Source: Promethearchaeota archaeon (GTDB lineage: Archaea; Asgardarchaeota; Heimdallarchaeia; Hodarchaeales; Hodarchaeaceae). Taken from it: a DNA stretch of 64,000 nucleotides. A model generated the notes under the pieces. That model made no database searches. It was not told where the DNA came from and saw only the letters and a program-made list of their open reading frames with translations. Each line of letters begins with the position of its first letter. Position 1 is the first letter of the stretch. The stretch covers positions 32,001 to 96,000 of the forward strand of contig JBHLMN010000001.1 of NCBI GenBank assembly GCA_048938105.1, given 5' to 3'. A program made the position numbers and the translations under genes. Shown one piece after another: positions 2,071 through 36,646 of the stretch.

Positions 2071-2337
2071 TCACTCTTCTGAAGACTCATCTTTATGAAG
2101 AAGAAAGGTGAACTTGGTAATGGTAGACATATTTCGTACTCTTCCCTCAGAATCAAGATAGAGTAGTCGAGCATGTGATTGTTCATCATCGATTCCATGT
2201 AAATCAAGAAATAGATCTAAACCCGTCACATCAGGTTGAAGTTGGTTCGCTGGAATACCAAGCGCCAAAGTCTTTTTACAGATAGAGCAAGGTTCAGTTC
2301 GAAGTCTCATAAGGCTAGACAACTTTATACCCTTCAA
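2071..2337 (-). CDS. Small putative Zn-binding protein (CxxC...H...H); last gene of the giant-protein operon
   Basis: CSIC, DLHG, HARLLYLDSEGRVR; co-oriented, 35 bp downstream of the 1025-aa gene; start may be ATG at 2310. Confidence 0.65.
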   Translation of the reverse strand: MKGIKLSSLMRLRTEPCSICKKTLALGIPANQLQPDVTGLDLFLDLHGIDDEQSHARLLYLDSEGRVRNMSTITKFTFLLHKDESSEE

Positions 2338-2372: not shown

Positions 2373-5300
2373 TTAATCATTCTCAGAGGTACTTTTGGAG
2401 GGGTCAGTTTCATCAGCTTCATCTTTGTCAGAGTCATCATCAGGAAAATCTAAGAATTCAGACTCAAAATCACCCATAATCTCTTCTGAAATCTCATCTG
2501 TCTCTATTTCAATCTCATCTAAAACCTCTAAAGTCCCTGAAATAAACAATCGGAATTCTTGGGCCTTTCTAAGAATAGTATCCTTATCCTCACCAGAACA
2601 GATGAGATCTTTCAACTCTATAATACCATCTTTAATCTCTTCTTGGAAATTATTCGCAGTTTCACCCCACTTTTCACGCATCACCAACATTAACAACAAG
2701 ATGCCTTGTCCACCACCAACAGGCACTTGGTCAAGAGTTAATGCTGATAACCATTGTTGGGGAAGAGTCGAAACAGGATACGCAAATGTAATGGCAGAGC
2801 ATCCAATTTCTTCAATCTTAAAGTCAACAAATGTCACTTGATCTTGAGGTCGGGTTTGCATGATAAAAGCAACATTGTTGTTCGCTTTATCAGTGAGCTC
2901 TTTCAAATACTGATAAAAATGCCCTATTAGTTGGGGTTCCCACATTAAAATGCTAGAAACACCTTCCCTCTGACCGTAAGCTGCTATAAAACCAAACATA
3001 GCCTCTTCTCCAAGATAAGCTAATCGTTCACTCCGACCAAGGGCAGCTTCGAAGCGTCTTCTGCGAAGAGCCTTCAATCGCTGTGATTGAGCGACTTTAA
3101 TTGCTGTGAAAACACTCACGAAAGCTGTTACTATGATAATTTCCATGATTAATAATCCAAGAAAAGTACTAAAAAAGATTTTAGTGGTATATTTACCAAT
3201 AGGTCGATTTTCCTCATTAATTTCATTACCTTCATTATCTACTGCATATACTCTAAATTGAATTTGTTCATTACCCAGCCATCCTGTATAAATTTTTGCA
3301 ATATAGCGATTTCCTTCTTGAGTCATATTTATACGGTTTGTCCATCCATCTTTAGTTCTCTTCTCGAGTATAACTGATTCAATACCACTTCCTAAATCAC
3401 TCGCTTGAACCCGAACTTGTAATAAACCAGGTTGAGAGTATTCTAAGTTTTCAATTCTAACTTTAGGTGCTAATTCATCACGTACTACATAATAATAAGT
3501 CTCGCTATATTCATTAGGATCAGGTGTAGCTTTATCTCGTACAACAACAGTAATTGAATAATTCTCATAGTCCTCGCTAAATGGTAATTGTAATGCTGCT
3601 ACTCCAGCAATTTTACCTAGAACATAAAGACCAGGAGTGGTTGTGTTCTTAAGCAGGACATGAGAATAAGCTTCAAAAATTGAACCATTTTCATAACGAA
3701 CAACGAGATACACCTCGTCAATTTCACCAAAGGGATCTGATGCTCTGACTGTAACATGGGTTCTTTCTTCAACTGTTGAGTTCGGTGTTATTGTGACCAT
3801 ATGAATTTCAGGTAATACTTCATCAGTAACAGCCACAATCCTAACTCCAGGATAAAAATCTGAATTGCCAGCCACAGTATCATTAAAAGATATCCCAAAT
3901 TCAACAGTCTTTCCATAAAATTGACTAATATTAAGGGTGAAAATAGCTTGATAATCTGTTCCACTACCAGTAATACTTATGGGATCTTGAATTTCCCCGT
4001 CAATTGTATAATTAAGTACTAAGGTATCGATTCCATAGCCCCAGTCAGTTATATTAACACTAATGGTTATAAGACCAGTTCCAGTTTGATTGATGACCGT
4101 ACTTTCAATTACAGGAGGACTATAATCTCCAATAATTGTACTCTGAATTTCTGATACAAAACTATTATTTGCATAATCAAATGTGACAAAATAAAATGTG
4201 ATCTCATCACTGAAATTGAAGGGGGTGAAAAATTGCCACTTTGTTTGAATATACCCTGCATTAGTGACATAACTAGGTGGTAGATAATTCAGACTAGAAT
4301 TCAATGTTTTGTTGTATTCAACCCCACTCTGGTTATAGAAAACGGTGACATTTTTTATTGAGCTTTCCCATGTACCTTCAGAGAAATTAGCCCAGAATTC
4401 AAAAATAGAAATATTATTAGTTCTATCAAGGCCCATATCAAGGGGTTGAGGTGGATTATTATCAGGAATGTCGGTTATACCTATAATCCGAATTTCATCA
4501 AACCAAACATCAAAATACTCATTCCAAAACTCTCTCGTGTTTAAATATGCCCCTAGTTCAAGTGTAAAGTTTGATGACTCGGGGTTAACTTGAAAACTAT
4601 ACTTGAAGGTATACCATTCTTCATCTTGAGTAATATTTGATCCCACTCGATAAAAAACAGTCCCATTGGGATTTGTTTCACTGATCGGGTTTCCCACCCA
4701 AAAGGATTTATCGGAATCCATAGGATGTTCTATTCTGCAACGAATCTCTTGAAAATCAGGAGTTCCATCCCTAACAATGACTTTATCACCGTATATAAAT
4801 TCATCGTAATCATCGAAACCGCCATTGGGGGTATCAAAACGCCATTTAAAGCTGATATTAATCATTTTGTATGTGTTTTGAATTGGAAAGTCAGCTTGCC
4901 ACCCTGCGGAAATATTTGATAAACGATACTCAACTAAATCCTCTACTGCTGAAGATTCGTTCTTTATTCCGTAATCATTCCCATTATTTCCTATTCTAGT
5001 GAACAATGAGGCTCCCTGTCCATTACCTGCAGTATTGTAAGGATCAATTAGACAATTTTCATACAAAGAAGAATCATATGAATCTGTACCTAGTAAATCG
5101 GCCCAAATTTTATTTTCATAACTGAAAGAGGTATCCTGTTCATCTAAAGTCTCATATAATAACACATCATACTGTTGTTGAATAGAAAATCGTGGTACAT
5201 GATCCCCTGAATTTAGTTCTCTGTACTGGGAATTGATGGAGTTCACATCAACTAGGGACTCCTGTTCAAAAGGAGAAATTGGAGTCAAAATGGACTTATC

Positions 5301-5450
5301 AGACATTATAAAAGATTCACTTTTTAATCCAGGTAGATTCCTATCTTGAAAGACATAAACCAAACCTGTGTTTGAATTAATCGTGTACATTAAACTTCCA
5401 ATATTCAATATCAGAGCAGTTAATACAATAATATGTCTGTACCTTACCAT
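2373..5450 (-). CDS. Surface/membrane protein: signal, beta-sandwich, Ig-like repeats, TM, degenerate cytoplasmic longin/uDENN-like domain, acidic tail
   Basis: Hydrophobic N-terminus; D-x-x-G-N and D-x-x-x-P repeat motifs; TM FLGLLIMEIIIVTAFVSVFTAI; cytoplasmic part aligns by eye with the two upstream paralogues (ILMWEP vs VIWEP; LLMLVMREKWG vs IVLLLRKEWG). Confidence 0.85.
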   Translation of the reverse strand: MVRYRHIIVLTALILNIGSLMYTINSNTGLVYVFQDRNLPGLKSESFIMSDKSILTPISPFEQESLVDVNSINSQYRELNSGDHVPRFSIQQQYDVLLYETLDEQDTSFSYENKIWADLLGTDSYDSSLYENCLIDPYNTAGNGQGASLFTRIGNNGNDYGIKNESSAVEDLVEYRLSNISAGWQADFPIQNTYKMINISFKWRFDTPNGGFDDYDEFIYGDKVIVRDGTPDFQEIRCRIEHPMDSDKSFWVGNPISETNPNGTVFYRVGSNITQDEEWYTFKYSFQVNPESSNFTLELGAYLNTREFWNEYFDVWFDEIRIIGITDIPDNNPPQPLDMGLDRTNNISIFEFWANFSEGTWESSIKNVTVFYNQSGVEYNKTLNSSLNYLPPSYVTNAGYIQTKWQFFTPFNFSDEITFYFVTFDYANNSFVSEIQSTIIGDYSPPVIESTVINQTGTGLITISVNITDWGYGIDTLVLNYTIDGEIQDPISITGSGTDYQAIFTLNISQFYGKTVEFGISFNDTVAGNSDFYPGVRIVAVTDEVLPEIHMVTITPNSTVEERTHVTVRASDPFGEIDEVYLVVRYENGSIFEAYSHVLLKNTTTPGLYVLGKIAGVAALQLPFSEDYENYSITVVVRDKATPDPNEYSETYYYVVRDELAPKVRIENLEYSQPGLLQVRVQASDLGSGIESVILEKRTKDGWTNRINMTQEGNRYIAKIYTGWLGNEQIQFRVYAVDNEGNEINEENRPIGKYTTKIFFSTFLGLLIMEIIIVTAFVSVFTAIKVAQSQRLKALRRRRFEAALGRSERLAYLGEEAMFGFIAAYGQREGVSSILMWEPQLIGHFYQYLKELTDKANNNVAFIMQTRPQDQVTFVDFKIEEIGCSAITFAYPVSTLPQQWLSALTLDQVPVGGGQGILLLMLVMREKWGETANNFQEEIKDGIIELKDLICSGEDKDTILRKAQEFRLFISGTLEVLDEIEIETDEISEEIMGDFESEFLDFPDDDSDKDEADETDPSKSTSEND

Positions 5451-5453
5451 TTT

Positions 5454-8400
5454 TCATTCCACCATAGAATCTGACTCATAATCAATACCTGTATAGAGTT
5501 TATTAAATGAAATCATCAGTCTTGATACAAATTCTCGGAGCTGACGAGCATTTTTCTCAATTTGAGATGAAGATTGTTGACTTTCAACCATCTTACGAAT
5601 TTCACGTAATTTTTCCAGTAATTCATCTTGGAAAACCAATAAATAATCTCCCCACTCTTTCCTCAATAAGAGAACGATTGTTAGATTTTCTTTACCCCCA
5701 CGGGCTTCAGGATTGGGAACAGCAAACGAATATCCCAGAGCAGTACACTCATAACTTCCAGTGGAGAAATCAAAAGTACCACTTCTTTCTGCTTCCTCCA
5801 GCCTTACAAATTCAAGGGTCGAGAAGGATTTATCCGATAAGTCAAGCATTATTTGTTCTTGATCCTCAAGAAGGGGGGGTTCCCAAATAACAGGAACAGG
5901 GCCTTGGATTTGGTCAAAGAAATTGACAGTAACCCCTAATGCAAATTCATCCATTTGAGTGAGAATCACTTCTCGAGAGATCTTTTCACTTTCGTCCAAT
6001 ATCTTTTTCATATCATAACCAACTGTTTTAGAAGTGATTCTAATACCCACGATGATCATTACAACCAAAACTATACCAATAGCGAGAATAACAAAGGGAT
6101 TGATGATTAGAGGGGGAAGTTCAAAATCGCTATCCACCTTCCAAATATCCTTAAGTTCTTGTGGATTATAATCTCCGACATTTCCCACCTTGTCAACAGC
6201 AATAATACTAATTCCATACGATTTTGATCCAATAATATTATCAAACTCTATTTTTGATGAAATAACAGCAGAATATGTGGTTATTGATGAAATCAGCTGC
6301 GCTCCTGTACCTCCAATCTGTGTAAGATTAATTGATTGTGATCCAATTTTTAAGATTATATAGTCTACACCAAGACCTGCTTCTTCAACTTTCACTGTAA
6401 TCCTTATTTTTCTATCAACTGTAATCTCGTAAGTAATCTGGTGTATTCTTGGAGCAACACAATCCTCAATTTCTTCTTCTACTGAGTATGATTTCGTATT
6501 TCCGGCATTATCTGTAACGATAACAGTAAAATGATACATTTCAAAAACAGTGAGATTACCTTGCCATGAAAACCGTAATTCATCACGTTTATTTTCTAGA
6601 ACTCCTATGAGCTCCATATTAATTATCTGTGTCACATTATTTCGGTCTGTAATAACTAGCTGAACAGAATTTTCATTCAGCCCAGACCAAGTACTATCTC
6701 TGGCTACAACAGTGATACTCATGTTACCCTCTCTTATTTTTGTAGGATCTTTAGAATTGTATATAGTTAAGTAAGTTACATTGATTTTCTTGCCTTCTTG
6801 TTCAATGAACTGCGGTTTAAAAGGATCATAATTAGCTGTAATGTTAAATGAAATAATTTTAGAGTGAAACTTTTGTATCGACTGACTAACCTTATCAAAA
6901 TTAGTTCCTGTATCGGTGACATTTACCTGAAAAAGGAGAGTATCATTGAAATCAAATTGAAAGAAATCTTCATTACCCACCCACTCTTCTATCGATTGAT
7001 CATACGAATATGTATAAATATAACGAGATCCTCCAGAAGGTAACTGATAATACGTTGGGGGTCTAGGAAAATATTGTTGAACCGATGAACGAGCATCAAA
7101 TAATTCGACAGATTCAATCCCACTCCCTATCCAAGTTTCACTATCATCTGTTACATCGATAATAATTAATATTGTTCCATTTCCTAGTTCATAAGTGAAG
7201 AGTTCCATAATCCTGGGCTGCTGATCATCAATCCAGAATATTTCTAACCAGTCTTCCTTAGGTTCTGCGTCTGGAATATCTAACCATTGATACCATTGTT
7301 CAAATTGAGTTAGTCCAGTTGCTAAATCAGTCATACTTATAACTTCAATATACTGATACGCAGTCTTTAGACTAAATATGGAGAACTCAGTCCATGAAAT
7401 ATTTGTATATATTGAGCCATTCAGAGAAATGTCGAATCTTATCTTTGATGGGTCAATAGGAATCTCGAAATCAACAAATTCTTTGATGTCAACAGGGATA
7501 CTTTTTAATACTTTATATTCCAATGAAACAGAGATATTTGCCCAGCTACCATGAGGATGTTTTTGGTTTGCTACTAATGTAATTATTATTCTGTCCCACA
7601 ATATGCGTACATCATTTGAATCAGAGTTTGCAATCGAGAAAATTCCAAAACTAGGATCTGAATTTATTTTTAAAACCCGGAATCGAACAGCACGATATGC
7701 TTCAGTTCGATTCCCCTCCCAAGGAGCAATTCCTGCGGTAAACTCAAGAAGATGTGACTCCTGTTTTGTGAAATCATGAAGCGAGGCTGTTCCATTAAAA
7801 GGTGCATTATCATATGTATGGTAAGCATAACAGTATAACGTAGCATTTTGCCCAAAATTCGCAAAAAAGAGTCTAGTACCCCAATCCTGACTTGTTACAT
7901 TCTTTTCGGGGTCATAGGAGTCAGAAAAGGTGAAAACAATATCATCCCAAACAATATCCACAAAGACGATTCGATCGTCAGGTTTGTCATCTATCACATT
8001 CGTAAATTTCGTAATCCCAAATGATGCGTCCTCAATTCGTACAATATAATATCTATAACTGTCAGAACCAGTTTTAACTAACCCTAGCCAACTTCCATCT
8101 CCATCTTCCATATTAATATACTTTTGAATCCCAGATTCAAAGTCTTTAGCAATGATATATCCATTGAAATTGGAATAATCATGCTTCCAATAGGCATTAA
8201 AATTCATATCTACCTCTTTTCCTATTCCAACTCTGGCATCAGAAGGAATCATTTCAATAATTAAATATGTCCAAATAATAGTTAAATTAAAACTTGCCGA
8301 TTCTGCAGTTTTATTTACAAAGAGATATCCTTGAGGATCTATGGGAGACCCACTAATAATTCTACATTCAAAAGATACAGGTTCTGGTAAGTGATGAGAG

Positions 8401-10076: not shown

Positions 10077-13000
10077 TATTCAATGAACTCCTGCTTGTAC
10101 TTCCTTCGGAATAATAACATTACTCGTGTAAAAAAGTTACGAGTATTTTCCATTTCCTTTTGCACAACTTTGACATCTGCTTGGCTTGCCATCAATTCAC
10201 GGATCTTTCGTATATTTTCTAGTAATTCGTTTAAGAATTTATTAATATTCTCAAGATTACCAAAGGGAGGTCTAATTACAAAGCAGATTGAAAGATTCTC
10301 TTGACCTCCACGGGCTTCAGGATCAGGAACAGCAAAAGCATACCCAAATACGGTACATCGCTCGCCACCAACTTGAAAGCGGAAAGTGGCATGTTTATCT
10401 TCTTCTGGTTTAGCAACAAATCCTAAGGTTGAAAATGATCTATCTGCAAGCGAAGCAAGCATTGCTTCAGATGTACGCATTTTATCTGGGAAAACAATAA
10501 TTGGTACTGGACCTTTTACTTGATCAAAGAAGTTAGCTACTAAACCAATTGAAATATTGTCATTCTGTTCCCAAACTTCATTATCAGCGACTTTAACCAA
10601 ATCATCCATTATTTTACCCTTGTCAAAGCCGCGAATAGTGCGCAGCCGCTGAACAGTTATGTATGCGAAAGCAAGAAGAATAACAATTATCAATAGAATA
10701 ACAAAAGGATTACTAATAAGCTCAAACGATGCTGGTGGTATGGCAAAACCTTCTGGGGATAAACCCGCTAAGAATTTACTTAATTCTGAATTCGTGATTA
10801 TGCGCTCATTTCCTTCAGAATCTGTTAAACTCAATTTAAACTGAACTGTATTTGAGCTTAAAAAGTCAAGAATGGTGAATTTCTTAGTAAAGGTCTTCTT
10901 ATACAAATAATTTGGACTTTGAAGTAGAGATCCCCCACTCCCACCAGATAAGACTTCATCCAAACTCACTGGTACCCCCTTACCTTTGATATAATAATAA
11001 AGGGTTGCATTATCTATCTGTGCTCCATTGTCTCCTACTTCGATTTCAATGGAAAACTCTCCAAATGGATTATATTTGAAGACACAATCAACTAATTGGG
11101 GACCAGCCTCATCAGTTATTAGAATTGATCCTTTTATTATTCCAGAATTTCCAAAGTTATCAGTTACATTCAGCTGATATTTAACTGTTGCCCCTACATC
11201 AAAGATAGAATTAAACCAAAATTCTCTGGTTGTACCGTTGATTTCACGATAATTCATATTGTGAGGTTCCATCCAAGAGCTAGTAGTAGGATCAAAGAAG
11301 CGAATACTGGCTGTTTCTAGTCCTGACCAGAAATCTGAAGCATTAATTGCAATAGTGAGATTCCCATCACTACTATCGTCATAACGCAATTCAAGAAAAG
11401 CAATTTTAGGAGCAAGACTATCAAAAACTAATTTAGTTGGAAATTCGTAGGAAACAGTATTACCACGTTTATCCTTGATTTGAATTGTATAATTTAACCT
11501 AGCATTATAATAAAAATTGTCACGCACACTAGTTGTATCAGTTGATATAACAATGAAGTAGAATAACCCAGAACTGGTGTTTGTAAAAAGATCCAATGTT
11601 ACTCGCCTCCCTGGGCGGGGGGAGCGCTCAATAGTTAACCATGCAGTAACCTCCTCTATCCCACTACCAAAGTACTTCTCTGGCTTATCATCAGTTACCA
11701 TCACTCCAATACCAAGAGTTCCATCACCAAAATCAATTAATGTTTGTTCTAATAATATTGGCGCTAGAGTATCATACCAGGAAATAGAAACAAATGGATT
11801 AACTTCCTTAATAACAGAGTAGGCTCCTGTCAAACCTGTAATGGGATCATAAGCATCAATAATCTGATACGTATGATTAATAGAATACATCTCATGATCA
11901 GAAAAGAATTTTAATGTTCGATTTACTTCAGCAATCTCTGGTACCATCTCACCGTCCTTCGTTAAGTTGTAGATGAGATTAGTAACGGCTTTATGATCAC
12001 TTTCATATTCAGCAATAAGTGAAATGGTTATTGATTCTCCAGGTTGGAAGATAGTTTCATCGGGGAATTTTATAATAATTCTATCCCAACTAAGACTAAG
12101 GAAGGGAACATCTTCAGTTGTTGATAAAACTTGGAACCCGAGACGTGTCTCATTCACACTAAGACCCCATTTATCAGAAACAATGTCTTCTATCAGAAAA
12201 AGAGCATCCCCAGGTTCATCTTGATAAAGTATTGGGAGGGTAACTGGAACACTTACGTTCCAATATTGTGGTGCTAATGAAATATTCTGATAATAATCAT
12301 GAAGAACTGTAATAACTCCATTAAAGGGTGTATTATCGTATTCATAGTAAGCTTGGATCTGTACAGAACCATGAGTATTTACATTGAAACGTAACAATGA
12401 TCCCCAAGGTTCAGCGAGTGATATGCGGAAGATAACACGATCCCAGATGATCTCAACTCTAATATCTCTAGCTTTTGTAGTTATATGTTCAAAAACTGTT
12501 ATTCCAAATTTCTGATCCTTAAATCCATCTTTTGTAATGTTAAACATGACTTTATTGACAGTATGAGTTATTCCCTCAAATTTAATTCTGTGGTTAACCC
12601 ATACATTATTAGAGGTCTCAGCTGCGGAAACATTATCACGAATAGTAAGTAAAACACCATCCAGTGGAATGGAAAAATCATGTGCGTAAAAAGCTTCAAC
12701 ATGAATTTTACATGAGGTTAGCTGAGGGATGCGAGAATCGGCAGCCCACATACGAACTTGAAACTTAGTCCAAATCACTGTCGCCTTATAATCTGCGTCT
12801 GCAGTCTCATTGATATATGAAAAAACTGATCCAGGATACTCGTATTCCTCTGGATAGGATGAATAGAAGCGATAGGCCTTGTTTGAACCTTCATTCATTT
12901 CATCAGCTATTCTAACATCTAAATTAACTTTAATAACTTCGGAAAATTTGAGTTGAATGTTTATCTGTCCATCAGCGTCATCTATATTTTCCATTTCGTC

Positions 13001-31000: not shown

Positions 31001-34000
31001 ATAGTAGAGATATGGTGATGATTCACTCGTTGTACTTGGATTATGGCCAATTGTAGGATTGGTATTGTCTCGACTAATTAGTATTGTACATGAATTGTTA
31101 ATATTCCCAACTTGATCAGTTATAGTCAAAACAAGATTTATATTGGGCCCTATATCGGCTGAATTAATATCTACAACTGGGACATCATATGTTCTTCCTG
31201 CTTGAGTATCCTCTGTTTCATCCGTTCTTTCTGCAAGTGTTCCACCAAGATCGGAAGCAGCGCTTGCATTTTTTAAACCAGCACCAGTTCCATCACTTGC
31301 ATCGATTCCCACTGTAAAATTCGCTTCATTAAGTCCCATGTTTACTCCATACCACCATTTCGAGTTTGAAGCATCCCAATAGAGATATTCACCATATGCA
31401 GTCTCATATTGGTGTGAATAGTCTATTGTGGCCGAAGGGTTATCATTATCTTCTCGAAATTGAAAGGTTACGATATTGCTGTTGTTCACCTTATCAGTCG
31501 CTTTATAGGTCACTGTGAATGTCCCATTGTTCTTATCCCCTTGATCAATTGCATAAGTAAATGTCCAACTCGTAAGAGATCCCCCTCGTGGGGGATTATT
31601 CCCAAAGAAAGTATCATCCTCGATTGCTAATAATCCTACACCTCCATCACTTGCAGTCCCTCCTATGATGAAATTAGTATCTACAGGACCCATATTGTCC
31701 GAATAATAACCATAAGCAGCACTTCCCCCATAAAAGAGATAATCAGATGATTCACTAGTGGCACTCGGATTATGCGTAATAGTAGGATTAGTATTGTCTT
31801 CTCGAAACTGAAAAGAAGTAGTATTAGTATTTCCCACATGATCCTTGGCAGTATAGGTTATTAAAAATGTCCCATTATTCTTATCCCCTTGATCAATCTC
31901 ATAAGTAAAAGTCCAGCTGATTAAGAAACCACCTTGCGGGGGATTATTGCCAAAAGAAGTGTCATCCTCGATTGATAATAACCCCACACCCCCATCATCA
32001 CCTGCAGTTCCTCCTACGATGAAATTAGTATCTGCAGTTCCCATATTATCTGAATAATAACCATATCCCGAAGCGCTATCATAGAAAAGGAAATCAGAGG
32101 CCTCACTTGTTGTACTTGGATCGTGATCAATATTCGGAGCAGTGTTGTCCTCGTAAAACGTAAATGAAGTAGTCTTGGTATTACCTACTTTATCATTGAC
32201 TATATAATTTACAGTAAATGATCCAAACGAGGAATCACCTGAATCGATAGTGTACGCAAAAGTCCAAGCCGTTAATGAACCGCTATAACTTGGATTGTCC
32301 CCGAAAATTGTATTATCTTGAACATACTGTAGTCCTGCACCTCCATCACTAGCAGTGCCTCCTACATTGAATGTTTGTTTTGTACCCTCCATATTGTCTG
32401 AATAGTAACCATAATTAGAAAGAGTATCATAATAGAGATAGGGAGAGGTCTCATTAGTAGCACTGGGTTCGTGAGTGATGGTAGGATCATTGTTATCCTC
32501 TCGAAAAGTGAAAATAGTTATAGCAGTGTTGTTAACAAAGTCTGTTGCTGTATATTTCACTCTAAATGTCCCATTGTTCTTATCTCCTTGATCAATTACA
32601 TATGTAAATGACCAGCTTGCTAACGAGCCACCACGAGAGGGATCATTCCCAAAGCTGGTGTTATCCACAATAGATACTAGACCAGCCCCACTATCACTAG
32701 CTGTCCCTCCTACTACAAAATTGGTATCTATAACACCCATATTATCTGAATAATAACCATAAGCTGAACTCCCGTCATAATATAGATAATTAGAGGCCTC
32801 GCTCGTGGTACCGGGATTATGGGTGATGGTAGGATCGGTATTGTCCTCTCGGAATTCAAAGCTGACAGTATTACTGTTATTCACTCTATCAATGGCAATG
32901 TAAGTCACCGTAAAGGTGCTATTCCCTGCATCCCCTTGATCAATTTCATAAGTAAACGTCCAGCTGGTTAAGGTCCCACCACGAGGGAGATTATTCCCAA
33001 AAGTAGTATCATCTTCTATAGATAAAAGACCCGCTCCTCCATCGCTAGCTGTACCTCCCACGATAAAATCAGTATCTACAGAATCCATATTGTCTGAATA
33101 ATAACCATAAGTAGTACTCCCCTCGTAGTAAAGATAATCAGATGACTCGCTAGTGGTACCAGAGCTATGGGCAATTGTAGGATTGGTATTGTCTATCCTG
33201 AATTCGAATTCAGTAGTATTAGTATTTCCTACGTAGTCTGTAACGGTGTATGTTATAACAAACGTACCATAGGAGGTGTCTCCTGATGTAATTTCATAAG
33301 TATAGATCCAACTACTATATGATCCCCCCATAGAAGGATTTCCACCGAAATCTGTATTATCAGTAAGTGATGCAATTCCTGAGCCTTCATCGCTTGCAGT
33401 ACCACCTATTATGAAATCAGTCGGTGATGCCCCCATATTATCCGAATAATAGCCATATGTTGAGCTAGTATCGTAATAAAGATAATCTGATAATTCACTG
33501 GTCGTTGCAGGATTGTGCTCAATCGTAGGGGGAGCATTATCCCATCCAATGTCTGGAAGGCTTGCAGCCAGAGTTGGATCGATATAAACTTGAGGTCCAT
33601 AGACATTCTGAACTCCTTCTATGGCAGATCCCACCGTTATATCATCCCTTTCTTGGATAGTCCCAGCTGGGGGATTTTCTTCTACATCATTCCTTATTAA
33701 GCCTGTTGTTGCCCCATAAGCTCCAGTATTTCCAACATATCCAACATAAACCTCTCCAGCATACGGATTTGAAGTATAATTCCACACTGCAGAAACAGTA
33801 ATCCAGATCTCATCGTCTGACGCGTCATTATCCTCCCAAAACCGAGAACCATCATTATACTTATGACTAGATATAGTGATGGCTGTAATTTTGACACAAT
33901 CAACTGCCACTTCGACATTTGTGTTGTTAAGATAGTGGGTGGCGCCATCACCCGCAAGATCCACGACTGGATAGTAGGAATAATTCCCTACTGTAGATTC

Positions 34001-36646
34001 TGAATCAGCAGAAACACTGAACGACGCGACACTGCTAGATATTGTGGTTTCGTCTCCAGTAGTAGGATTTGCAGGGTCTCTAAAAATAGAGACTTGATCA
34101 ATTTGTGCATCTGGAACTGAATAGGAAGTCCCTTTATAACGAATAATTCCTGTGAATGTGAGATCTGACGCATTATTCGGATTAATAGACGAATCATCTG
34201 AAGTAAAAGAAGAGACAACGATATCATGATTGAATGAATAAGTACTTATCGAATTTTCATTATCCGAATGTGCTAATGAGTCATTTACAAATGCCTCAAT
34301 TGGAATCCCTGTTCCTGTGGGAAAATCCCAGTCAAATGTAATGTCAAACGTTACTGATAAATCATTCACAGAGCCAGTTCCGCTTGCTGAACTTAGACTC
34401 ATGTTATTTAAGGGATCCCAGATTTCACTATAGCTACTATCAGTCCTATTGTATCCGACTGAGAATTCAACACCATTTACTGTAAAATTCAGTTGGACAT
34501 ATTCAATATCTGTATAGCCAGAGAGATCTGTCGCATTCACTCGAAAAGTATAATCTTTTCTCTGGGAATGAATTTCTCCCTCATCGTCATTAGTGACAGT
34601 AATTTCTGTTATTTCAGGTATATCATTTTCTTCACTATCAATAGTTATTGTTGGAGGAGTTTCCACCGCAGCCATCACTGCCCACACGCCTATTTTCATA
34701 TATGAAAAAGTAGTACTTTCGTAAAACGTTAGTGAACCACTTGAAGGAAGTCCACTTGCAGTGTGGCTTAATGTCCATGCACTTGGCTCGTTATTCCCAG
34801 TTGCCCAACGTTTTCCTTTAAGGGTATCTCCTACAATCTGGAATTTATAAAAATACCAAAGTGCAGTGGAGTAACCTCCACTTATTGAAGTATATTGGAT
34901 AGTAGAGCCAGTATATCGACGAAGAGATATGGCAGTTGAATTTTGATCTAAATAGAGATAATTTGGTCCACCAATGTTTGTCCTTAAACTAATAGAAGAG
35001 CTTGTGGAAGCTATTGCTTTATACATTACAAATACTTGAGTGTTATTGGTTACTAGATTTGATCGTTCAAGTGTCCCATAAGCTGTATTAGATCCTGACG
35101 CGATATTATTATTAGTCCACCATCCGATGTTGGTGGGTTTTGTTCCATCAGTTGTCGCAGCCCAAGATGTTGTAATATAGGAATTTAAGTTTCCACTGCT
35201 AAAGTCATCATAATCTATGAAGATTTTTGAAGTGTCTGAAGGAGGATTCCCAGGATCTCCGGACCGAAAACCATAATAAATTGCATAATTATGATCTGAT
35301 GAAGATGCAGTTATTGTTTTTTGGAGTTTAAAGAACACTGCAGTTTTTTGTGTATTATTTTTCAGAACCACCCTGTTTAGTTCATACCAGGTTGAATCAG
35401 TTTCGTTATAGTAGACCACTCGTAGATCCTTACAATCAGCTCGCAGTTTGGACGCAGAAACCAGAGTTTGTGTATCTAAATCTACTTGGATAGTATAATT
35501 TGTCCCAATTTCGGATCCTGCTGTTATTCTAACTTGCTTGACGTATTGGTAGTTGCTATTCCACCACGAAGGACTCCCTGTTATATCGCTAAACGCAAAA
35601 TTTGGTTGCAAATAGGGATATGCAACGTCAACTAATGGAGAAGTTGATTCCTCCTCAATAGTTGTATCAATATGCTCTGTTTCATTTAATTGTAAATCTA
35701 CTTCACTATCTTCGATCGTTTGCTCAATTTTGGGATAAACAACGCTAGCGCCTGTTCCTGATAGTGCCTGTAATTCAAATGCTGTTGATAAGTCCTTTAC
35801 CATTTGAAGTGAGAAATAACCATTTCCTAAATCTCGTCGTTCGTACACTCGGTTAAAGAATGTGAAACGCGTTACACCTTCCTCCTTTTCTTCAGGAAGA
35901 GAGGTGAGGATATTCTGCACTTGAGTGATTATTGTTAGGGGCATCATCAGAAGAATGATTCCAAATAACAGCAACAAAATGTTTCCAAACTGCTGTGGAT
36001 AAACTATTGATAAGCCAAATAATCCAATGGTTCCTAGGATGAGTAAGAATAACTGACTAGGGATCCCTGTTATTGGGGTCAAATGAAATCGTATTTGTTC
36101 AAATTGGATTCCTTTTAGGCTGTCACTGGCATTCCATGACGAGAAAGACACCTCAAAATATTCTAACTCTTTGAAAGCGGTAGTATTAAAATTAAATTGA
36201 ATGTTTGTTCCACGGTATAAATCCAAGGCATTTATTACTTGAACAGAGTTGTTCACTCCCTCAATAGTAGCCAATTCAAACGGAAAAACGTTAATTGTAA
36301 CATTATGTAACCCACCCCAACAAATAAAACTGGTAGTTTTGGTTGTGAATAACATTTGCATACGTAATGAGAGCATTTCAAAAGGTTCTTTGGGAGTCTT
36401 GAAGATGAACCGGAATTTATAGGCATCCTGTTCACTAATCGCCTCTTGGATCTTCATTCCACTTTCTGACCTATAACTCTGATTATGAAGCCCATTAGTA
36501 ATAGTTCCATCCTTCCCAAACGCGAAATAATTGCTAAAAGGATAAATTGTATTGTTTGGCTGATTCATGGACACTGATGATATCATTAAAACTAGGAGAA
36601 GCAATAAGATCGCTTTTAAAAAGTATTCTTGGTATTTTAGTGTCAT
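10076..36646 (-). CDS. Giant 8856-aa surface protein: signal, TM hairpin, DUF2341-like and lectin-like domains, dozens of ~116-aa Ig/cadherin-like repeats, TM, cytoplasmic longin/uDENN-like domain
   Basis: 26.6-kb uninterrupted ORF with GAGGA upstream. DUF2341-like WWNSNYQY...DLRVVYYN; repeated ES.YLYY...YYS[DN]...D..GN...DN..P units; TM PFVILLIIVILLAFAYITV; NFFDQVKGPVP; FAVPDPEARGG. Confidence 0.92.
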   Translation of the reverse strand: MTLKYQEYFLKAILLLLLVLMISSVSMNQPNNTIYPFSNYFAFGKDGTITNGLHNQSYRSESGMKIQEAISEQDAYKFRFIFKTPKEPFEMLSLRMQMLFTTKTTSFICWGGLHNVTINVFPFELATIEGVNNSVQVINALDLYRGTNIQFNFNTTAFKELEYFEVSFSSWNASDSLKGIQFEQIRFHLTPITGIPSQLFLLILGTIGLFGLSIVYPQQFGNILLLLFGIILLMMPLTIITQVQNILTSLPEEKEEGVTRFTFFNRVYERRDLGNGYFSLQMVKDLSTAFELQALSGTGASVVYPKIEQTIEDSEVDLQLNETEHIDTTIEEESTSPLVDVAYPYLQPNFAFSDITGSPSWWNSNYQYVKQVRITAGSEIGTNYTIQVDLDTQTLVSASKLRADCKDLRVVYYNETDSTWYELNRVVLKNNTQKTAVFFKLQKTITASSSDHNYAIYYGFRSGDPGNPPSDTSKIFIDYDDFSSGNLNSYITTSWAATTDGTKPTNIGWWTNNNIASGSNTAYGTLERSNLVTNNTQVFVMYKAIASTSSSISLRTNIGGPNYLYLDQNSTAISLRRYTGSTIQYTSISGGYSTALWYFYKFQIVGDTLKGKRWATGNNEPSAWTLSHTASGLPSSGSLTFYESTTFSYMKIGVWAVMAAVETPPTITIDSEENDIPEITEITVTNDDEGEIHSQRKDYTFRVNATDLSGYTDIEYVQLNFTVNGVEFSVGYNRTDSSYSEIWDPLNNMSLSSASGTGSVNDLSVTFDITFDWDFPTGTGIPIEAFVNDSLAHSDNENSISTYSFNHDIVVSSFTSDDSSINPNNASDLTFTGIIRYKGTSYSVPDAQIDQVSIFRDPANPTTGDETTISSSVASFSVSADSESTVGNYSYYPVVDLAGDGATHYLNNTNVEVAVDCVKITAITISSHKYNDGSRFWEDNDASDDEIWITVSAVWNYTSNPYAGEVYVGYVGNTGAYGATTGLIRNDVEENPPAGTIQERDDITVGSAIEGVQNVYGPQVYIDPTLAASLPDIGWDNAPPTIEHNPATTSELSDYLYYDTSSTYGYYSDNMGASPTDFIIGGTASDEGSGIASLTDNTDFGGNPSMGGSYSSWIYTYEITSGDTSYGTFVITYTVTDYVGNTNTTEFEFRIDNTNPTIAHSSGTTSESSDYLYYEGSTTYGYYSDNMDSVDTDFIVGGTASDGGAGLLSIEDDTTFGNNLPRGGTLTSWTFTYEIDQGDAGNSTFTVTYIAIDRVNNSNTVSFEFREDNTDPTITHNPGTTSEASNYLYYDGSSAYGYYSDNMGVIDTNFVVGGTASDSGAGLVSIVDNTSFGNDPSRGGSLASWSFTYVIDQGDKNNGTFRVKYTATDFVNNTAITIFTFREDNNDPTITHEPSATNETSPYLYYDTLSNYGYYSDNMEGTKQTFNVGGTASDGGAGLQYVQDNTIFGDNPSYSGSLTAWTFAYTIDSGDSSFGSFTVNYIVNDKVGNTKTTSFTFYEDNTAPNIDHDPSTTSEASDFLFYDSASGYGYYSDNMGTADTNFIVGGTAGDDGGVGLLSIEDDTSFGNNPPQGGFLISWTFTYEIDQGDKNNGTFLITYTAKDHVGNTNTTSFQFREDNTNPTITHNPSATSESSDYLFYGGSAAYGYYSDNMGPVDTNFIIGGTASDGGVGLLAIEDDTFFGNNPPRGGSLTSWTFTYAIDQGDKNNGTFTVTYKATDKVNNSNIVTFQFREDNDNPSATIDYSHQYETAYGEYLYWDASNSKWWYGVNMGLNEANFTVGIDASDGTGAGLKNASAASDLGGTLAERTDETEDTQAGRTYDVPVVDINSADIGPNINLVLTITDQVGNINNSCTILISRDNTNPTIGHNPSTTSESSPYLYYDGSSAHGYYSDNMELTTVTFIVGGTANDADAGMQLVTDNTTTFGDNPSRGGSLSSWTFSYTIDSDDSSEGTFNIIYTATDNVGNNGTTLFEFRVDNTDPTNNHDPSTTSESSNYLYYDNVAAYGYYSNNMGSTPTDFVVGGTASDGGAGLLSIIDNTTFGTDPSNSGSLTDWIFTYSITSGDSAQHTFVIMYTATDRVGNTKPAYFEFKEDNTIPAITHNPGATSESSPYLYYEGSAAYGYYSDNMGSVDNDFIIGGTASDGGVGLLAVEDDTAFGNNPPRGGSLTSWTFTYAIDQGDKNNGTFTVTYKAIDRVNNSNIITFEFREDNTDPTIGISTSTTTEDSPYLYYDGSSTHGYYSDNMDSIDTNFVVGGTASDGGADLLSIEDDTTFGNDLPRGGTLTSWTFTYEIDQGDAGNGTFSVTYNATDNVGNFFTTSFEFREDNTDPTIDFSSSTTTEASAYLYYDGSSTHGYYSDNMGPVGTDFVIGGTASDGGAGLLSIVDNTTFGKDPGMGGTLSSWTFTYNITQGDFGNGIFRVKYTATDLVNNTAIMTFEFREDNDDPSAISIADYYDNTDNNGDGYLPTKGNTTIQAFYDDSTFNATVYRTEDGSGIYILKIKSNTTGTYGDSVTDGSNVSCPLTAETINTIWYQVVDNVGNNATSTFSPNIDVYYSTETPTGMDIDIIGTGIWTLAAPSYAWISDSSDITSGELFLGNGGDTEWSISMDSSGDWGNSGPWRVVFSEGWGIASPVNDSSPPFSSTDLSENYHSNTGAIGSITVDIINQCGLSQRVTLITTADTTGPTMASITASGNDGSPVAGWDQDGSGFSINPSPIADGASGINTVVFDVDDNSPDAYNSSDDPFVYPVDIGDDGDYTFWAVAVDKVGNYGLFNRSYEVHVDTINPKSITTNFILPDYSPNWYDQGETGFANYSISFNEVNVYSIQVVCNLNGDQASDAGQGQSSPFYSIINLDPSYTDGVTFITITIRDKAGRTNTTFTGINNITLDDTAPSATIDYTHQYEVANGQEDYIYWNGSIWWYGDDMGSSEAKFTVGVNTDDGTGVGLNYAIAAANLGGSPEDRTDDTEDTEAGRTYDVPVVNITNADSWSGSLLITVYDLLGNAGTTSITISRDIINPSSYWLILDADPKTIGYAPNTNYYDDPTVDFTVGGTATDGTGSGLPGSPYGFSYDGAAFVWQSEITKQYTMTEANHTVDLKVIDHVGNEGDNSTQWVIVDTDSPEGFTLDWDRADGAPFDNAFFDGSSIYFDSQQNDYFTVTVLNTGDINNSGFWKIEWDKNNTFGVAINDTSGLPDLKDFNYWGDKNGTFIIRIINNAGNYLEFQYDAIELVGQIIITIDSAFISESSPYLYYDGSSDFGYYSDNMGSTSVDFTVGGTVSTETGTLFIVRDDTSFGNNPLNDSLSGTSDTWSFTYSINSSDSIFNTFIITFTAFIVETSSINASDTFEFRLDNTNPSIAHNPVTTSESSNYLYYDGSSAHGYYSDNMGAVDTNFIVGGTASDGGADLLSIEDDTAFGNDLPRGGTLASWIFTYAIDQGDAGNGTFTVTYTATDNVANTAIASFELREDNTNPSIAYNPVSTSELSDYLYYDGSSDHGFYSDNMGLTLTDFIVGGDASDGSGSGLLSITDNTLFGNDPIRGGSLNAWTFTYKIDSGDSIIYDDVTITYTATDNVNNSFIDTFQFREDNTAPNVAIDLVDNPSGSPYLYIIGTYFYFSNLMDPSGVDVVINGTINDGDSGYLTVNFTTHFGDSPPEDVGTPVWEATYTIHANDLEQSYPETNIIITGVDRVNNTDIKTVTFLKDKIKPTITVIGFTEDAIKEYMHPVNETLLYYSNKSTGTPLFTVTVLAEESIPSINSGVKKASFPEIFGGDNYDNTSTKNGTSHARYWQWQYSIQPTNKTGSYTITIYDQVGNSNSADFKLHLDITKPSVNVINIIIPDSEYLYKESSTSLFYSNKHLTMHELFRVRVTVDDTESNRSHANGTIFNDQDTSSDYSNNYYQLTYWVDYNEFEGGSVAITGYDLVGNNETSYLTVKLDNNPPTPVIYYVYTTTEHLYYNSTGTKRLYYSDDQVMFADFTIQVTADDGTGAGLLNATGEAKFGETVRLDTTYDEGYNLTYQININELEPITTNITIWVFDQVGNNEIVKLLCLEDNDPPSSLLITNVIETSPFIYYDVSRKILFYSNDQPQDESFSIRITAADAKVGLKNATGEENEFNDTNINDINYLPKGYYELSYIISQSDYATEGKVVYTVYDLCGNWNTVNLTATLDNKAPQDVFIDQVIEGSNYIYLKNDSGSLTLYVSTLSLSSETFSIYINNTEPSSESGRLLANGSLYFGESPSTTSYQYVLTYSIDPGDTAFNGTSIVIETYDKVGNKNSTSLPIYVDHTPPHKTSLFFNDHESDYLHDDGTQFFFSANMLSVQTMTINGTASDGGGVGVHRIISENAFGSTFSPNYGTYWSFDYEIDSLDSEQYTTGFIRIFLIDRVNNSRQVDVPYVSDNEGPSSVNIHEITEDLLAEYLHYVSGTTAILWYSNVRTDKGPRKFTVKVTSVDTGGAGLRNASFPDIGAGFSSGGYDTNYALDFWNYSYTALNGAHNGSVTIKVWDNVANSNTTSFYLYLDNTGPKNLAFSELTEDSVFIHYTGTTLYYSNDPSIISPQIFTLKISAKDIHSGLFSGNGSYDFGEQHNTTSSDGYFSLQYGIEAGESASNNLLSINVYDNVGNNETFYLTCVNDATPPAQPTIIGIIESSCNIYYNSSTKILWYSSDQTMSDSFTIRITTSDSQSGLHKATGSLEFGSTPSDLSYTPENYYQLPYVIDTGEGTSGGITITIYDRVNNSNEYTLQVNLDDTPPKSLTIEYVDTYSSEYLYYNITLQNHTLYYSNDQEMNEQFSIFVTAHDGSGVGLFNATGENDFGDVGVSDSDYVSNYVLHYNIGQSENATNNETIIWVYDRVGNSATVNLTSVLDNDPPVLVVLHHLEENSDYLYYDETKKIFFYSSDQSMNDEFTLQLNVTERSSGVKNVTGSSDFGETTPFTTTNSTGQFWIQYTVSESETAGVDNKIIITVYDRVGNINNNYELSAILDDDPPAQIQIEGIIESSEFLYYDGTILFYSNYRTLQNEVFNVNITCEDLASGRLIVKGGTAFGEQPSSSDYTNDYYLISYTVSYEETSPTQFSVTVYDNVNNYESRPVNCTKDNFSPHSLSILDVIESSDFLYYNGSSKELYYSNQNPTMSESFTIRITCIDDDAGRLNATGEPDFGDPKPGDISYLPGNYYELDYTVDPGNIATKGYIQLFIFDRVGNNESINLVCRLDNTAPTGDIDTIIESSPHLFYNDGTERFYFSNNQGMSDSFTIRVTSTDVGINQSGRLNATGEYEFLDSGVGDTDYSTYYELVYTIDENDGVSDENVTIKLYDRVGNYLELNLTCIEDNIAPTFIHIDSVQVYNSYYLYYATSTNTLFYNNQNPMNDPVRINITASDGTGAGLRSVNGSIDFNEQHNSTEYLPSWGYSLVYYVNSGETASDNEIRFYVYDKVGNYASNKTNAFLDITEPYVAIQTVIEDSEYLHYSGGVLYYSNHTIGMHEKFTIRVIGSDSGGAGKLNATGEDDFNSFDVGDTDYTTYYELEYYVDYGGYASEGSVSIYFFDRVGNSKTTSLPCTLDNTPPSGLAIESVGENAVNLYYEPGIGLFYSNDTIGLDSEFYVIILASDPISMLQNATGSLDFGEFGFDLSYSNGYNLSYIVSYDEDVGDDEKIVIKVFDHVGNYNTINLSCIVDNTPPTITIEYPDSKVWNKTDGGVSLFGGNVFDNGGTYKSGIDTNSYAFTEFDEVISSYIGSPNQSFVNEAPGGNTWRNTFNITTIDNANVTLTVYVSDRVGNRNKYSVQVWHDDTDPSISYNWIIFLGGDDELLEAGKTTDVYYSINDNASIYFDIDFDVSGLGSPSFFSGLFSAEYQTDDGSGWYTIFDYSSDPSLIDFTDDWQILNWIDTLFNGPNTIDLRVTDEAGNVFTHNYIPGTSGFNFLLTKNGPAIATASVLGNEQYISDTTIYDWDGTDFILNFNYTSVAPLDQISIYSDQNAIIQVYNFADLQWSNDGNNYYLSNKLINYDFGTEGNRSIFIRAKDSTEWYSSWTQMWLFVDEYVPEISLSTITELNLSWTIYANAADKKLYFSDKMGNSHAGFNVTVNAVDSGSGMTGGFVHFEDFDSGAVASQDVVDTAVFWVNSLTTNGIWVQAYAVDASNRTSNVESLVQVVQDVTDPVVDIMSVIESSEFLYNVGNTMLYYSNYHVGMHELFEVRVTVDDGSGSGRVNATGTAFLETDSSTDYTAGYYSLYYFVDKDDLEGASITITGYDLVGNSATDSLPLANDNDPPDPLTIVNVDDSFSDYLYYDGTLYYSSDQSMNDPFIIYLTAIESSSGIQNVTGSFDFNEFASSFKESGGFYNLTYNVGTGESASGGKITLTVFDNVGNSKNINLSCILDDDRPEFVTIEGIIKDSFLLYYSGTTLYYSNWHSSQDEQFSINITSNDLISGLMRVDGSMAFTDSPSSSDYSQGYYLVDYTVMKDETAPEDQITITVYDQVMNSRSTTLTLQKDNTKPSISINTVVETSPYLYYNDSSKKFYFSNDQPMSDQFTIQITGSDTGGAGRFNATGEADFNDPISGDPSYLPQNYYQLNYTVDLGDPVSNGYIRIWLYDRVGNNNSIDLTCIEDNVAPSGSIEEVVESSPHLYYNSTSGEFYYSNDQVFSVSFSISVTASDNVVGASLQKIVGEDDFNNSGVFDNDYSDYYWLTYFISKSDYATEGQLELTLYDNVGNTFPINLICHRDNDPPKIDLAKMAIDEHTDYTHYLKDGTQILWYSNRMPFDIDFQITVTTNDSTFPSDSGLYRIRFPTFFNTTVFNTTNPTQTYYISNASSSSGFMTFTSFDNCGNSASTSLEVRRDNTKPKGFIISIEETPESLFVHETQDLESYNTNGFIPELWYSDNMGLSAVPVNITLNATDPGSVFAGIANITFPGIGTEGVQEVTSTTIYYSRTYTLSTSDDTTATIDFTIIDNVYNAYIVRLHVIKDTTPPTIHFTDVTDPIYDVIGTELDNDSNWYDQGVLTSGFMISSAPLDLPNGPYPKSGIYTVYLDWVSTGSPDRMGVDLGKDGDGTIFGIENDTDGIITLTLTAYDHVGNTNQTSITIQFDNTKPVYFDNTVLHQNGNISLSGQAFDAGSDVQNITIRDLSGNHFQNIISEDFADWTVNNNSAFNDITPSQNVLIELEVYDNVHNSIKYNATITYHTLSFFVLKHNIPKHVEIDDPGVWDIIIGIEYDNKIINKSNNIIDRRVNETQFVVQIAGTSMPINSLIWAPTDEHNFTLAISLPGRSAIENLTIGATFGEQLRLIWAILDSNIEVEIDYQKSDVVIYHDLEIKYEEDNVEIIETDNTDNDIMNVTLYLEKDYSPYTGNLAIENIIFTVNETQATFLGAEHLGNGYHNITIQLPQHLDTGSKDLDFVWTLGTGIYQYVVESNTSAAEKPAGIVIYHDIVIDASIPESLRVFEVDGDFYFLVNFTVTEDKGDKSYDLIDNSDLQCLIIKGQDLTYLIDNNDSTSLGNYFFDFTLTDDITPKSWVGDILVRFRIQNPISELYEWGETYIQGHDLQMTINTIETTRVGSDLHEFDPDDRTTFYITFTVQDSNGTISPVTTLNASNFVWMDLINVESANENVSLDNIVDWFDFQDPPTPGKYIIEFVLDSIQASELGLNFINLILTINDKFGHNVTNSKVDLESKDFVTLLGLEWIITPYGRFNFTEVNATLDYTFRLSVGDEITVCFKIYKLEVPGKIPTTDKVTIFWDHTPWNATDTLWYSPDESEFVNITVKSDRLSPSRPFIAYAEGNSEKQFSLAPWRFYLEWAKIQATTEAVDDNTEDDNNSVLNVNGMYDLTYSAQIYRSSKASLVKTGGVIFNINIELWQFLGGQWVSLNPFSIDHSDGSGNITSTFHNGTTKVGIIKIIDEMENIDDADGQINIQLKFSEVIKVNLDVRIADEMNEGSNKAYRFYSSYPEEYEYPGSVFSYINETADADYKATVIWTKFQVRMWAADSRIPQLTSCKIHVEAFYAHDFSIPLDGVLLTIRDNVSAAETSNNVWVNHRIKFEGITHTVNKVMFNITKDGFKDQKFGITVFEHITTKARDIRVEIIWDRVIFRISLAEPWGSLLRFNVNTHGSVQIQAYYEYDNTPFNGVITVLHDYYQNISLAPQYWNVSVPVTLPILYQDEPGDALFLIEDIVSDKWGLSVNETRLGFQVLSTTEDVPFLSLSWDRIIIKFPDETIFQPGESITISLIAEYESDHKAVTNLIYNLTKDGEMVPEIAEVNRTLKFFSDHEMYSINHTYQIIDAYDPITGLTGAYSVIKEVNPFVSISWYDTLAPILLEQTLIDFGDGTLGIGVMVTDDKPEKYFGSGIEEVTAWLTIERSPRPGRRVTLDLFTNTSSGLFYFIVISTDTTSVRDNFYYNARLNYTIQIKDKRGNTVSYEFPTKLVFDSLAPKIAFLELRYDDSSDGNLTIAINASDFWSGLETASIRFFDPTTSSWMEPHNMNYREINGTTREFWFNSIFDVGATVKYQLNVTDNFGNSGIIKGSILITDEAGPQLVDCVFKYNPFGEFSIEIEVGDNGAQIDNATLYYYIKGKGVPVSLDEVLSGGSGGSLLQSPNYLYKKTFTKKFTILDFLSSNTVQFKLSLTDSEGNERIITNSELSKFLAGLSPEGFAIPPASFELISNPFVILLIIVILLAFAYITVQRLRTIRGFDKGKIMDDLVKVADNEVWEQNDNISIGLVANFFDQVKGPVPIIVFPDKMRTSEAMLASLADRSFSTLGFVAKPEEDKHATFRFQVGGERCTVFGYAFAVPDPEARGGQENLSICFVIRPPFGNLENINKFLNELLENIRKIRELMASQADVKVVQKEMENTRNFFTRVMLLFRRKYKQEFIE
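25880..26940 (-). repeat. Three further copies of the same ~348-bp unit
   Basis: G[YF]YSDNMG anchors near 26863, 26501 and 26153; DNA near 26330-26560 closely matches 29750-29960 and 32920-33110. Confidence 0.85.
29330..33540 (-). repeat. In-frame tandem repeat array, 348/351-bp unit (116/117 aa): 6 units, one divergent unit, then 5 units
   Basis: The GYYSDNM-type anchor recurs at about 33440, 33092, 32744, 32396, 32048, 31697 and then 30968, 30617, 30269, 29921, 29573. Confidence 0.9.

Follow-up and report, generated by a model that had tools for sequence, protein, structure and literature searches.

We analyzed a 64,000-nucleotide (nt) stretch of DNA from a Promethearchaeota archaeon of the Hodarchaeales (GenBank assembly GCA_048938105.1, contig JBHLMN010000001.1, positions 32,001 to 96,000; hereafter, the window), and in particular three abutting open reading frames (ORFs) on its minus strand, here named genes 1, 2, and 3 and together termed the triad. 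These genes would encode three paralogous type-I-like surface glycoproteins, with repeat ectodomains of very different reach on a shared membrane-proximal stalk, and each ectodomain appears to be tethered by one transmembrane (TM) helix to a longin domain on the cytoplasmic side, which belongs to the folliculin (FLCN)/SMCR8/NPRL2 class. As judged from sequence, their most likely function is that of a membrane-tethered Rag GTPase-activating protein (GAP) or docking module on adhesin-like receptors.

Architecture of the three surface proteins

In agreement with the original prediction, which was made from the letters of the window, the ORF coordinates delineate three contiguous minus-strand genes, namely, gene 1 (10076-36646; 8856 amino acids [aa]), gene 2 (5454-10076; 1540 aa), and gene 3 (2373-5450; 1025 aa). 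The gene 1 stop and the gene 2 start overlap in the sequence TAATG (10074-10078), and a 3-bp gap (5451-5453) lies between genes 2 and 3. The 26.5-kb ORF of gene 1, in DNA of 36% G+C, is no chance product. The true start of gene 2 may be a second ATG, located 7 codons in and preceded by GGAGG; the public gene call for this protein is 1533 aa.

Hydropathy analysis revealed the same series of parts in all three proteins: a hydrophobic segment at the N terminus, an extended ectodomain, a single TM helix close to the C terminus, and a tail of 188 to 240 aa. More specifically, the giant protein of gene 1 is composed of a signal peptide or anchor (aa 7-30; nt 36557-36628), an N-terminal domain, a hydrophobic hairpin (aa 197-244; nt 35915-36058), an ectodomain of ~8400 aa, a TM helix (aa 8646-8668; nt 10643-10711), and the tail, whereas the TM helices of genes 2 and 3 are located at aa 1327-1349 (nt 6030-6098) and aa 758-785 (nt 3096-3179), respectively. 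The shared layout foreseen for the three proteins (i.e., export signal, ectodomain, C-proximal TM helix, and tail) was thus found in each, but the description "single-pass" requires amendment for the giant protein, in which aa 197-244 represent two extra hydrophobic segments. Because this hairpin leaves the TM parity unchanged, the gene 1 ectodomain is still expected outside and its tail inside. The positive-inside rule points the same way, given that the numbers of lysine and arginine residues after the TM helices (4, 3, and 6 for the three proteins) exceed those before them (0, 1, and 3). Moreover, sequons occur at 1.5 to 2.8 times the composition-based expectation in the ectodomains, whereas their frequency in the tails is as expected. 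The sequon distribution and the clustering of basic residues after each TM helix argue for N-out/C-in glycoproteins and bear out the predicted cytoplasmic location of the tails; this location, together with the longin fold described below, is the part of our interpretation that we hold with high confidence.

The C-terminal regions of the three proteins are related along their length. Residues 554-1528 of gene 2 are colinear with residues 7923-8850 of gene 1 (26% identity, E = 5e-65), and residues 628-989 of gene 3 with residues 1178-1540 of gene 2 (E = 6e-18). Thus, the three proteins have the stalk, TM helix, and tail in common and differ in their distal reach. The gene 1 ectodomain contains an array of ~45 repeats of ~115 aa with the pattern DNTxP...YLYY...D.V[GN]N (nt 15467-33529), as determined from 36 D.V[GN]N motifs spaced ~115 aa apart and an alignment of 32 repeats. 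An Ig-like character had been predicted for the ectodomains, and the repeats are probably Ig-like, according to weak profile matches and language-model matches. The former were to the Pfam families Big_13, Big_7, and DUF7743, all below threshold, and the latter came from an Atlas feature search with the repeats, in which 10 of 10 neighbors carried Ig-like families (scores of 0.88 to 0.91). A profile of the repeats, however, gave only insignificant matches in the PDB (e.g., phage tail fibers, E ~0.08).

Fold and conserved motifs of the cytoplasmic tails

The tails of gene 1 (aa 8669-8856; nt 10079-10642) and gene 2 (aa 1350-1540; nt 5457-6029) are 39% identical to each other (E = 9e-53). Both contain the motif NFFDQ.[KQ]GPVP that had been proposed to open the domain, i.e., NFFDQVKGPVP in gene 1 and NFFDQIQGPVP in gene 2, but ~35 juxtamembrane residues precede it in each protein, so the tails begin that much earlier. 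The FFDQVKGPVP segment of gene 1 (nt 10502-10528) comprises, by alignment and model, the end of strand 1, a loop, and the GP motif opening strand 2; its gene 2 counterpart, FFDQIQGPVP, is encoded by nt 5892-5921. We compared 80 tails with 22 to 75% identity to that of gene 1, and found that two sets of residues (F40, D41, Q42, G45, P46, and P48, and A111, R112, G113, G114, E116, and N117) are at least 90% conserved. Other families of the class likewise preserve the corresponding motifs, FDQxxGPxP and ARGGxEN. Based on conservation and secondary structure, the ARGG loop of gene 1 (nt 10304-10315), located between strands 4 and 5, holds a candidate arginine finger at Arg8779 (codon 10310-10312), and the equivalent gene 2 residue is Arg1459 (nt 5700-5702).

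An AlphaFold2 model of the gene 1 tail, generated with the 80-sequence alignment, was of high predicted quality (pLDDT, 93.4; pTM, 0.89) and displays the element order of a longin domain, i.e., two strands, a helix, three strands, and two helices. Residues G45 and P46 open strand 2 (E45-52) in this model, a GP motif that gene 2 has as well, and A-R-G-G-x-E-N sits in the loop between strands 4 and 5. Judging by this topology, the FDQxxGPxP and ARGGxEN loops would be adjacent, as in the canonical longin sheet. When known structures were ranked against the gene 1 model, the longins of FLCN (12.7), CSW (11.7), Lst4 (11.4), and NPRL2 (9.8) scored above those of TRAPP (8.7), VAMP7 (8.5), Ykt6 (8.2), and Sec22 (8.0). 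The tail thus resembles the GAP longins more than it does the longins of SNAREs, TRAPP, or adaptors, by a margin that is smaller for the gene 3 model. LOV/PAS domains and LuxR-type ligand-binding domains were also considered for the tail fold and were rejected, with Foldseek root mean square deviations of 8 to 12 Å, template modeling scores of 0.3 to 0.4, and lower Z scores.

Among Pfam families, Folliculin (PF11704; curated cut-off, 23.3 bits) was the only one to recur; it matched 16 of the 80 relatives (E ≤ 0.01), and no other family competed with it. When excised, the tails of genes 1 and 2 scored 22.8 and 17.1 bits, respectively (E = 0.005 for gene 2), and the six-frame search of the genome gave 23.5 bits. 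An arginine occupies position ~61 of the Folliculin model in the tail, in a soluble 449-aa paralogue, and in the longin-Rag fusions described below. This position may correspond to FLCN R164; in GAP longins, the arginine finger (FLCN R164, SMCR8 R147, and NPRL2 R78) lies in the loop that precedes the last strand. An Atlas feature search with the tail returned Asgard clusters, one of which carries NPR2 on 19% of its members, at scores <0.9 that make this a lead only. A published study considers the pairing of a GP motif with an arginine finger to be specific to longins with GAP function (FLCN, NPRL2, and SMCR8/C9orf72) and records it in Asgard longins too (PMC12290439).

Two further proteins of this genome bear similar features. 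The soluble 449-aa paralogue (L006:652-1998, minus strand, equivalent to G000:C52:295244-296593) has an N-terminal Folliculin-type longin that scores 28.5 bits, above the cut-off and the best Pfam Folliculin match in the genome, and it displays the motifs FDEEHGPI and EDPEARG. In addition, the window encodes a 357-aa protein (61483-62556, plus strand) with FFDEIQGHVPLFAYP at its N terminus, a segment similar to the tails' strand 1-2 motif (E = 0.009 with the tail profile); this protein was matched by no Pfam family.

The tail of gene 3 (nt 2376-3095) is a distant but significant relative of the others (E = 1.8e-14 against a profile of five Arg-bearing paralogues), and it has no match to Pfam Folliculin. 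It reads AAYGQREGVSS where the others have FFDQxxGPxP, with G-V in place of G-P, and a 13-residue insert lacking arginine takes the place of ARGG. Both the GP motif and the arginine are absent from all 12 gene 3 orthologues, which are 59 to 89% identical to the window copy. Given this uniform state and level of identity, the gene 3 tail is better viewed as a maintained non-catalytic form than as a product of decay, and by analogy to FNIP, NPRL3, and C9orf72 it is most likely a non-catalytic longin partner or scaffold. After the longin, the protein ends in an acidic motif, DIMxDFExEFLD. Its extended form, D-[ED]-x-[ST]-[DE]-x-I-M-x-D-F-E-x-[ED]-F-L (2376-2450, minus strand), is present behind the longin of every gene 3 orthologue, two of which carry it in duplicate, and might be a short linear motif for binding.

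Genomic association with Rag-like GTPases and proposed function

Genes for Rag-like GTPases recur beside relatives of the triad. One paralogue of the tail genes (C28_49987-57729) is located 239 nt from a gene for a 729-aa Gtr1/RagA fusion protein (E = 5e-32), which is followed by a gene for a 300-aa Gtr1/RagA protein (E = 1e-37); only 6 of the 2268 large ORFs in the genome have a Gtr1/RagA-like neighbor within 1 kb. Of 68 related loci, 17 have both a tail gene and Rag-like genes, and at 14 of these 17 a Rag-like gene lies within ~600 nt of the tail gene. Likewise, in all six loci examined beyond the genus (five in other families of its class and one elsewhere in the phylum), Rag-like genes directly flank the TM-longin gene; two of these loci hold tandem TM-longin pairs. 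In a midpoint-rooted tree of the tails, for which support was not assessed, the Rag-adjacent genes fall in several lineages and gene 3 sits on a long branch.

Two loci from another family of the class, L098 (G140:C13) and L099 (G135:C85), carry TM-longin genes of ~1600 aa in a tandem pair, each with ARGG, and a same-strand Rag-like fusion gene after the pair; L098 adds a second, convergent Rag-like gene. This tandem TM-longin and Rag-like arrangement may be the ancestral gene order. The host genome contains 26 Gtr1/RagA and 62 Arf profile matches, and three of its six strongest Gtr1/RagA-like GTPase genes are located just past the end of the window (C52:96.5-103.5 kb), the remaining three being the pair on C28 and one on C8.

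Domain fusions provide a second line of evidence. Proteins of ~470 aa from other Asgard classes (L104:1038-2447, L105:1484-2887, and L106:881-2290) combine a Folliculin-type longin bearing the arginine finger with a Gtr1/RagA domain and a C-terminal region. They score 24.0 bits against Folliculin, match best in the PDB to Lokiarchaeal Rag-like GTPases, RagA, and Gtr1, and are the nearest soluble relatives of the tails in those classes. By sequence, these fusions are a "Rosetta-stone" link of this longin type to Rag-like GTPases. For the tail family, there is good support for a functional connection to Rag-like GTPases, which by homology would extend to the triad. The original prediction had envisaged signaling to small GTPases in general; the paralogue neighborhoods and domain fusions narrow this to the Rag/Gtr type, but no GTPase gene lies within 27 kb of the triad itself.

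These observations bear on another view of the proteins, namely, that they are structural adhesins or S-layer-like envelope components, with the longin serving in anchoring, sorting, or cytoskeleton linkage and the GTPase neighborhood being incidental. Giant, sequon-rich repeat ectodomains are indeed a typical feature of adhesins in archaea and bacteria, no GTPase gene adjoins the triad, and the longin and profilin folds are related (PMC10933270). However, chance proximity sits poorly with the recurrence of Rag-like genes beside TM-longin genes, which extends over several lineages of paralogues and several families within the class, with the fusion of the same longin type to a Rag-like GTPase elsewhere, and with the conservation of catalytic-type motifs, and we consider a purely structural role quite improbable.

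Instead, we propose that the tails of genes 1 and 2 most likely bind Rag/Gtr-like GTPases on the cytoplasmic side of the cell membrane and accelerate GTP hydrolysis by them, a GAP-type role suggested by the retention of both the GP motif at strand 2 and the arginine in the strand 4-5 loop. The gene 3 tail would most likely act as an Arg-less longin partner or scaffold, and engagement of the ectodomains, by adhesion or partner-cell contact, could be coupled to the state of the GTPase. We infer GTPase binding, GAP activity, heteromer formation, and ectodomain-GTPase coupling from the architecture and its relatives. Taken as a whole, the statement that the triad represents membrane-tethered surface glycoproteins with Rag/Gtr-binding, GAP-type tails and a non-catalytic gene 3 partner seems to us about evenly balanced between right and wrong.

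Paralogues with and without the arginine have adjoining genes that are conserved as a set, an arrangement merely suggestive of a catalytic/non-catalytic heterodimer, and the order giant/~1550 aa/~1000 aa, with gaps of 0 to 25 nt, is found in at least 10 related genomes, in line with the original prediction, which a lack of such conservation would have refuted. A predicted complex of the gene 1 and gene 3 tails scored 0.00 with the partner poorly folded, and is evidence neither for nor against such pairing.

Several results weigh against the proposed GAP-type function. There is no Rag-like GTPase gene beside the triad, the nearest being 27.9 kb away. The sequence likeness to FLCN is marginal, with the gene 1 tail, when excised, falling slightly short of the Pfam cut-off, and PDB sequence searches with the tail, the 80-sequence profile, the soluble relative, and a longin-only fragment retrieved no FLCN, SMCR8, or NPRL2; the link to FLCN is therefore structural, complemented by a marginal Pfam match. 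The residue-level match of the tail arginine to FLCN R164 is a presumed one. No cDENN/dDENN module was found after the longin, as the proteins end at the last longin helix, and they are thus longin-only relatives rather than full orthologues of FLCN or SMCR8. Accordingly, of the longin/uDENN assignment made originally, the longin fold of FLCN/SMCR8/NPRL2 type stands (by model and structural ranking), but only the longin part of the DENN module is present. Moreover, flanking housekeeping genes (LysRS) and small ORFs are as syntenic as the triad; since the genomes are close kin, the counts are not independent, and triad synteny is weak evidence on its own.

A last point against GAP activity is that most longin and roadblock platforms are guanine nucleotide exchange factors (GEFs) or scaffolds, and not GAPs (PMC10933270). 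The tails might accordingly be passive membrane docking platforms or GEF-like scaffolds that recruit Rag-like GTPase dimers to the cell membrane, in the manner of Ragulator on lysosomes and without GAP catalysis, with the arginine being structural or contacting a partner. The neighborhood and fusion data fit binding as well as they fit catalysis, longin and roadblock dimers being mostly platforms or GEFs, and Rag-family GTPases require a membrane tether, which the TM helix would provide. Nonetheless, the GP motif and the ARGG loop, which PMC12290439 assigns specifically to GAP longins, hardly vary across the family, and the structural ranking prefers FLCN, SMCR8, and NPRL2 over TRAPP and SNARE longins, so that docking without catalysis appears rather unlikely.

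The direction of signaling can also be reversed: in an integrin-like, inside-out scheme, the tails would read the state of the GTPase and thereby control clustering, conformation, or shedding of the ectodomains. The architecture fits either direction equally, and the combination of a common stalk with ectodomains of ~700, 1300, and 8600 aa hints at adhesion or at a reach that can be adjusted. Nothing speaks directly against this scheme except that an Arg-finger GAP acts on its GTPase instead of reading its state, and we regard it as very improbable. Returning to GAP-type tails that signal from outside to inside, a more far-reaching version can be formulated, in which the triad is a hetero-oligomeric plasma-membrane receptor whose Arg-finger tails (genes 1 and 2) pair with the Arg-less gene 3 tail as a forerunner of FLCN-FNIP, NPRL2-NPRL3, and SMCR8-C9orf72, and in which contact with a surface or a syntrophic partner cell, perceived through the ectodomains with their graded reach, sets the nucleotide state of the Rag-like GTPase. 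We consider this version unlikely; if true, Rag signaling would have begun as cell-surface receptor signaling and later moved to the lysosome.

Distribution, neighboring genes, and relation to known systems

Near-identical loci are present in metagenome-assembled genomes labeled Hodarchaeota, Hodarchaeum, or Heimdallarchaeota, which confirms that the DNA, as had been recognized from its letters, comes from an Asgard archaeon. The tail was detected in 19 of 20 genomes of the genus, in 1 to 11 copies, nearly all of which end long ORFs where contigs permit. A search of 1.8 billion representatives returned 147 clusters with the tail, positioned C-terminally in nearly all of them and in proteins of up to 5809 aa; those bearing a source name are called "hypothetical protein." In a sample of the phylum, TM-longin genes occur mainly in the same class, and other classes match with the ~470-aa proteins.

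The stretch originally outlined as three genes (2071-36646) does hold the triad, but by starting at 2071 it also includes a fourth, small ORF of 79 aa (MRLRTEPCSICKK...; 2071-2310, minus strand), 62 nt downstream of gene 3. This ORF is kept at the same place in 11 related loci (56 to 90% identity), has a single paralogue (C52:258134-258331), and may be a fourth member of the operon. A 134-aa ORF convergent with the operon (1590-1994, plus strand) is 56 to 95% identical across 11 related loci. None of the small downstream ORFs (79, 134, and 179 aa) matched a Pfam family, and their conservation reflects general synteny. On the other side, ~1.4 kb upstream of the giant gene and past a ThiN gene, lies a TnpB/IS605 OrfB-like gene (Cas12f1-like TNB, HTH_OrfB_IS605; 38021-39325, minus strand), a mobile-element remnant.

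The closest known counterpart of the tails is the longin of FLCN, which acts with FNIP2 as a GAP for RagC/D (yeast Lst7-Lst4; PDB 8DHB, 6NZD, 6ULG, and 4ZY8). FLCN has a C-terminal DENN module that the archaeal tails lack, and it is a soluble, lysosomal protein, whereas the archaeal longin forms the cytoplasmic end of a surface protein with an ectodomain of 700 to 8600 aa and would sit at the cell membrane. GATOR1 NPRL2-NPRL3 and C9orf72-SMCR8 are multi-domain, soluble longin heterodimers; heterodimerization of the archaeal tails is hypothetical. The Lokiarchaeota Roadblock-Longin protein (longin domain, PDB 8YQG) is 10 to 12% identical to the tail, and is soluble and dimeric, with no attachment to a membrane protein. 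Lokiarchaeal Rag-like GTPases are available for comparison (PDB 8YL2 and 8ZLA/9M28).

FLCN-type Asgard longins and longin-Rag fusions have already been published (PMC12290439; Liu et al. 2020, 10.1101/2020.10.19.343400; PMC10933270). The FLCN/SMCR8-type longins in the first two of these works share with our tails the longin class, the two motifs, the phylum, and an emphasis on Heimdallarchaeia. As described in the accessible text of these two works, they are soluble, combined with DENN, or fused to GTPases or two-component domains, and neither a fusion to a TM helix with a giant ectodomain nor a triad with an Arg-less member is mentioned there. Our full-text literature search found no description of a TM-anchored FLCN-type longin on giant surface proteins, and longins go unmentioned in a survey of giant proteins in Asgard archaea. 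Thus, the original claim of an undescribed architecture agrees with the searchable literature, but it does not extend to Asgard FLCN-type longins that combine a GP motif with an arginine finger, which PMC12290439 already reports.

Hodarchaeales have been proposed as one of the archaeal groups closest to eukaryotes, and in eukaryotes FLCN-FNIP and GATOR1 control the lysosomal Rag GTPases and hence mTORC1. Folliculin-like tails on archaeal surface proteins therefore imply that the link to nutrient signaling may predate eukaryotes. The conserved putative operon, with two catalytic-type tails and one Arg-less tail, is a first hint that the partnership of catalytic and pseudo-catalytic longins may also predate them. 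As the tails are small (~190 aa) and confidently modeled, they are good targets for biochemistry and crystallography. Together with Rag-like GTPases, they offer a concrete, testable archaeal Rag-regulator pair, and they suggest that this module first worked at the cell membrane.
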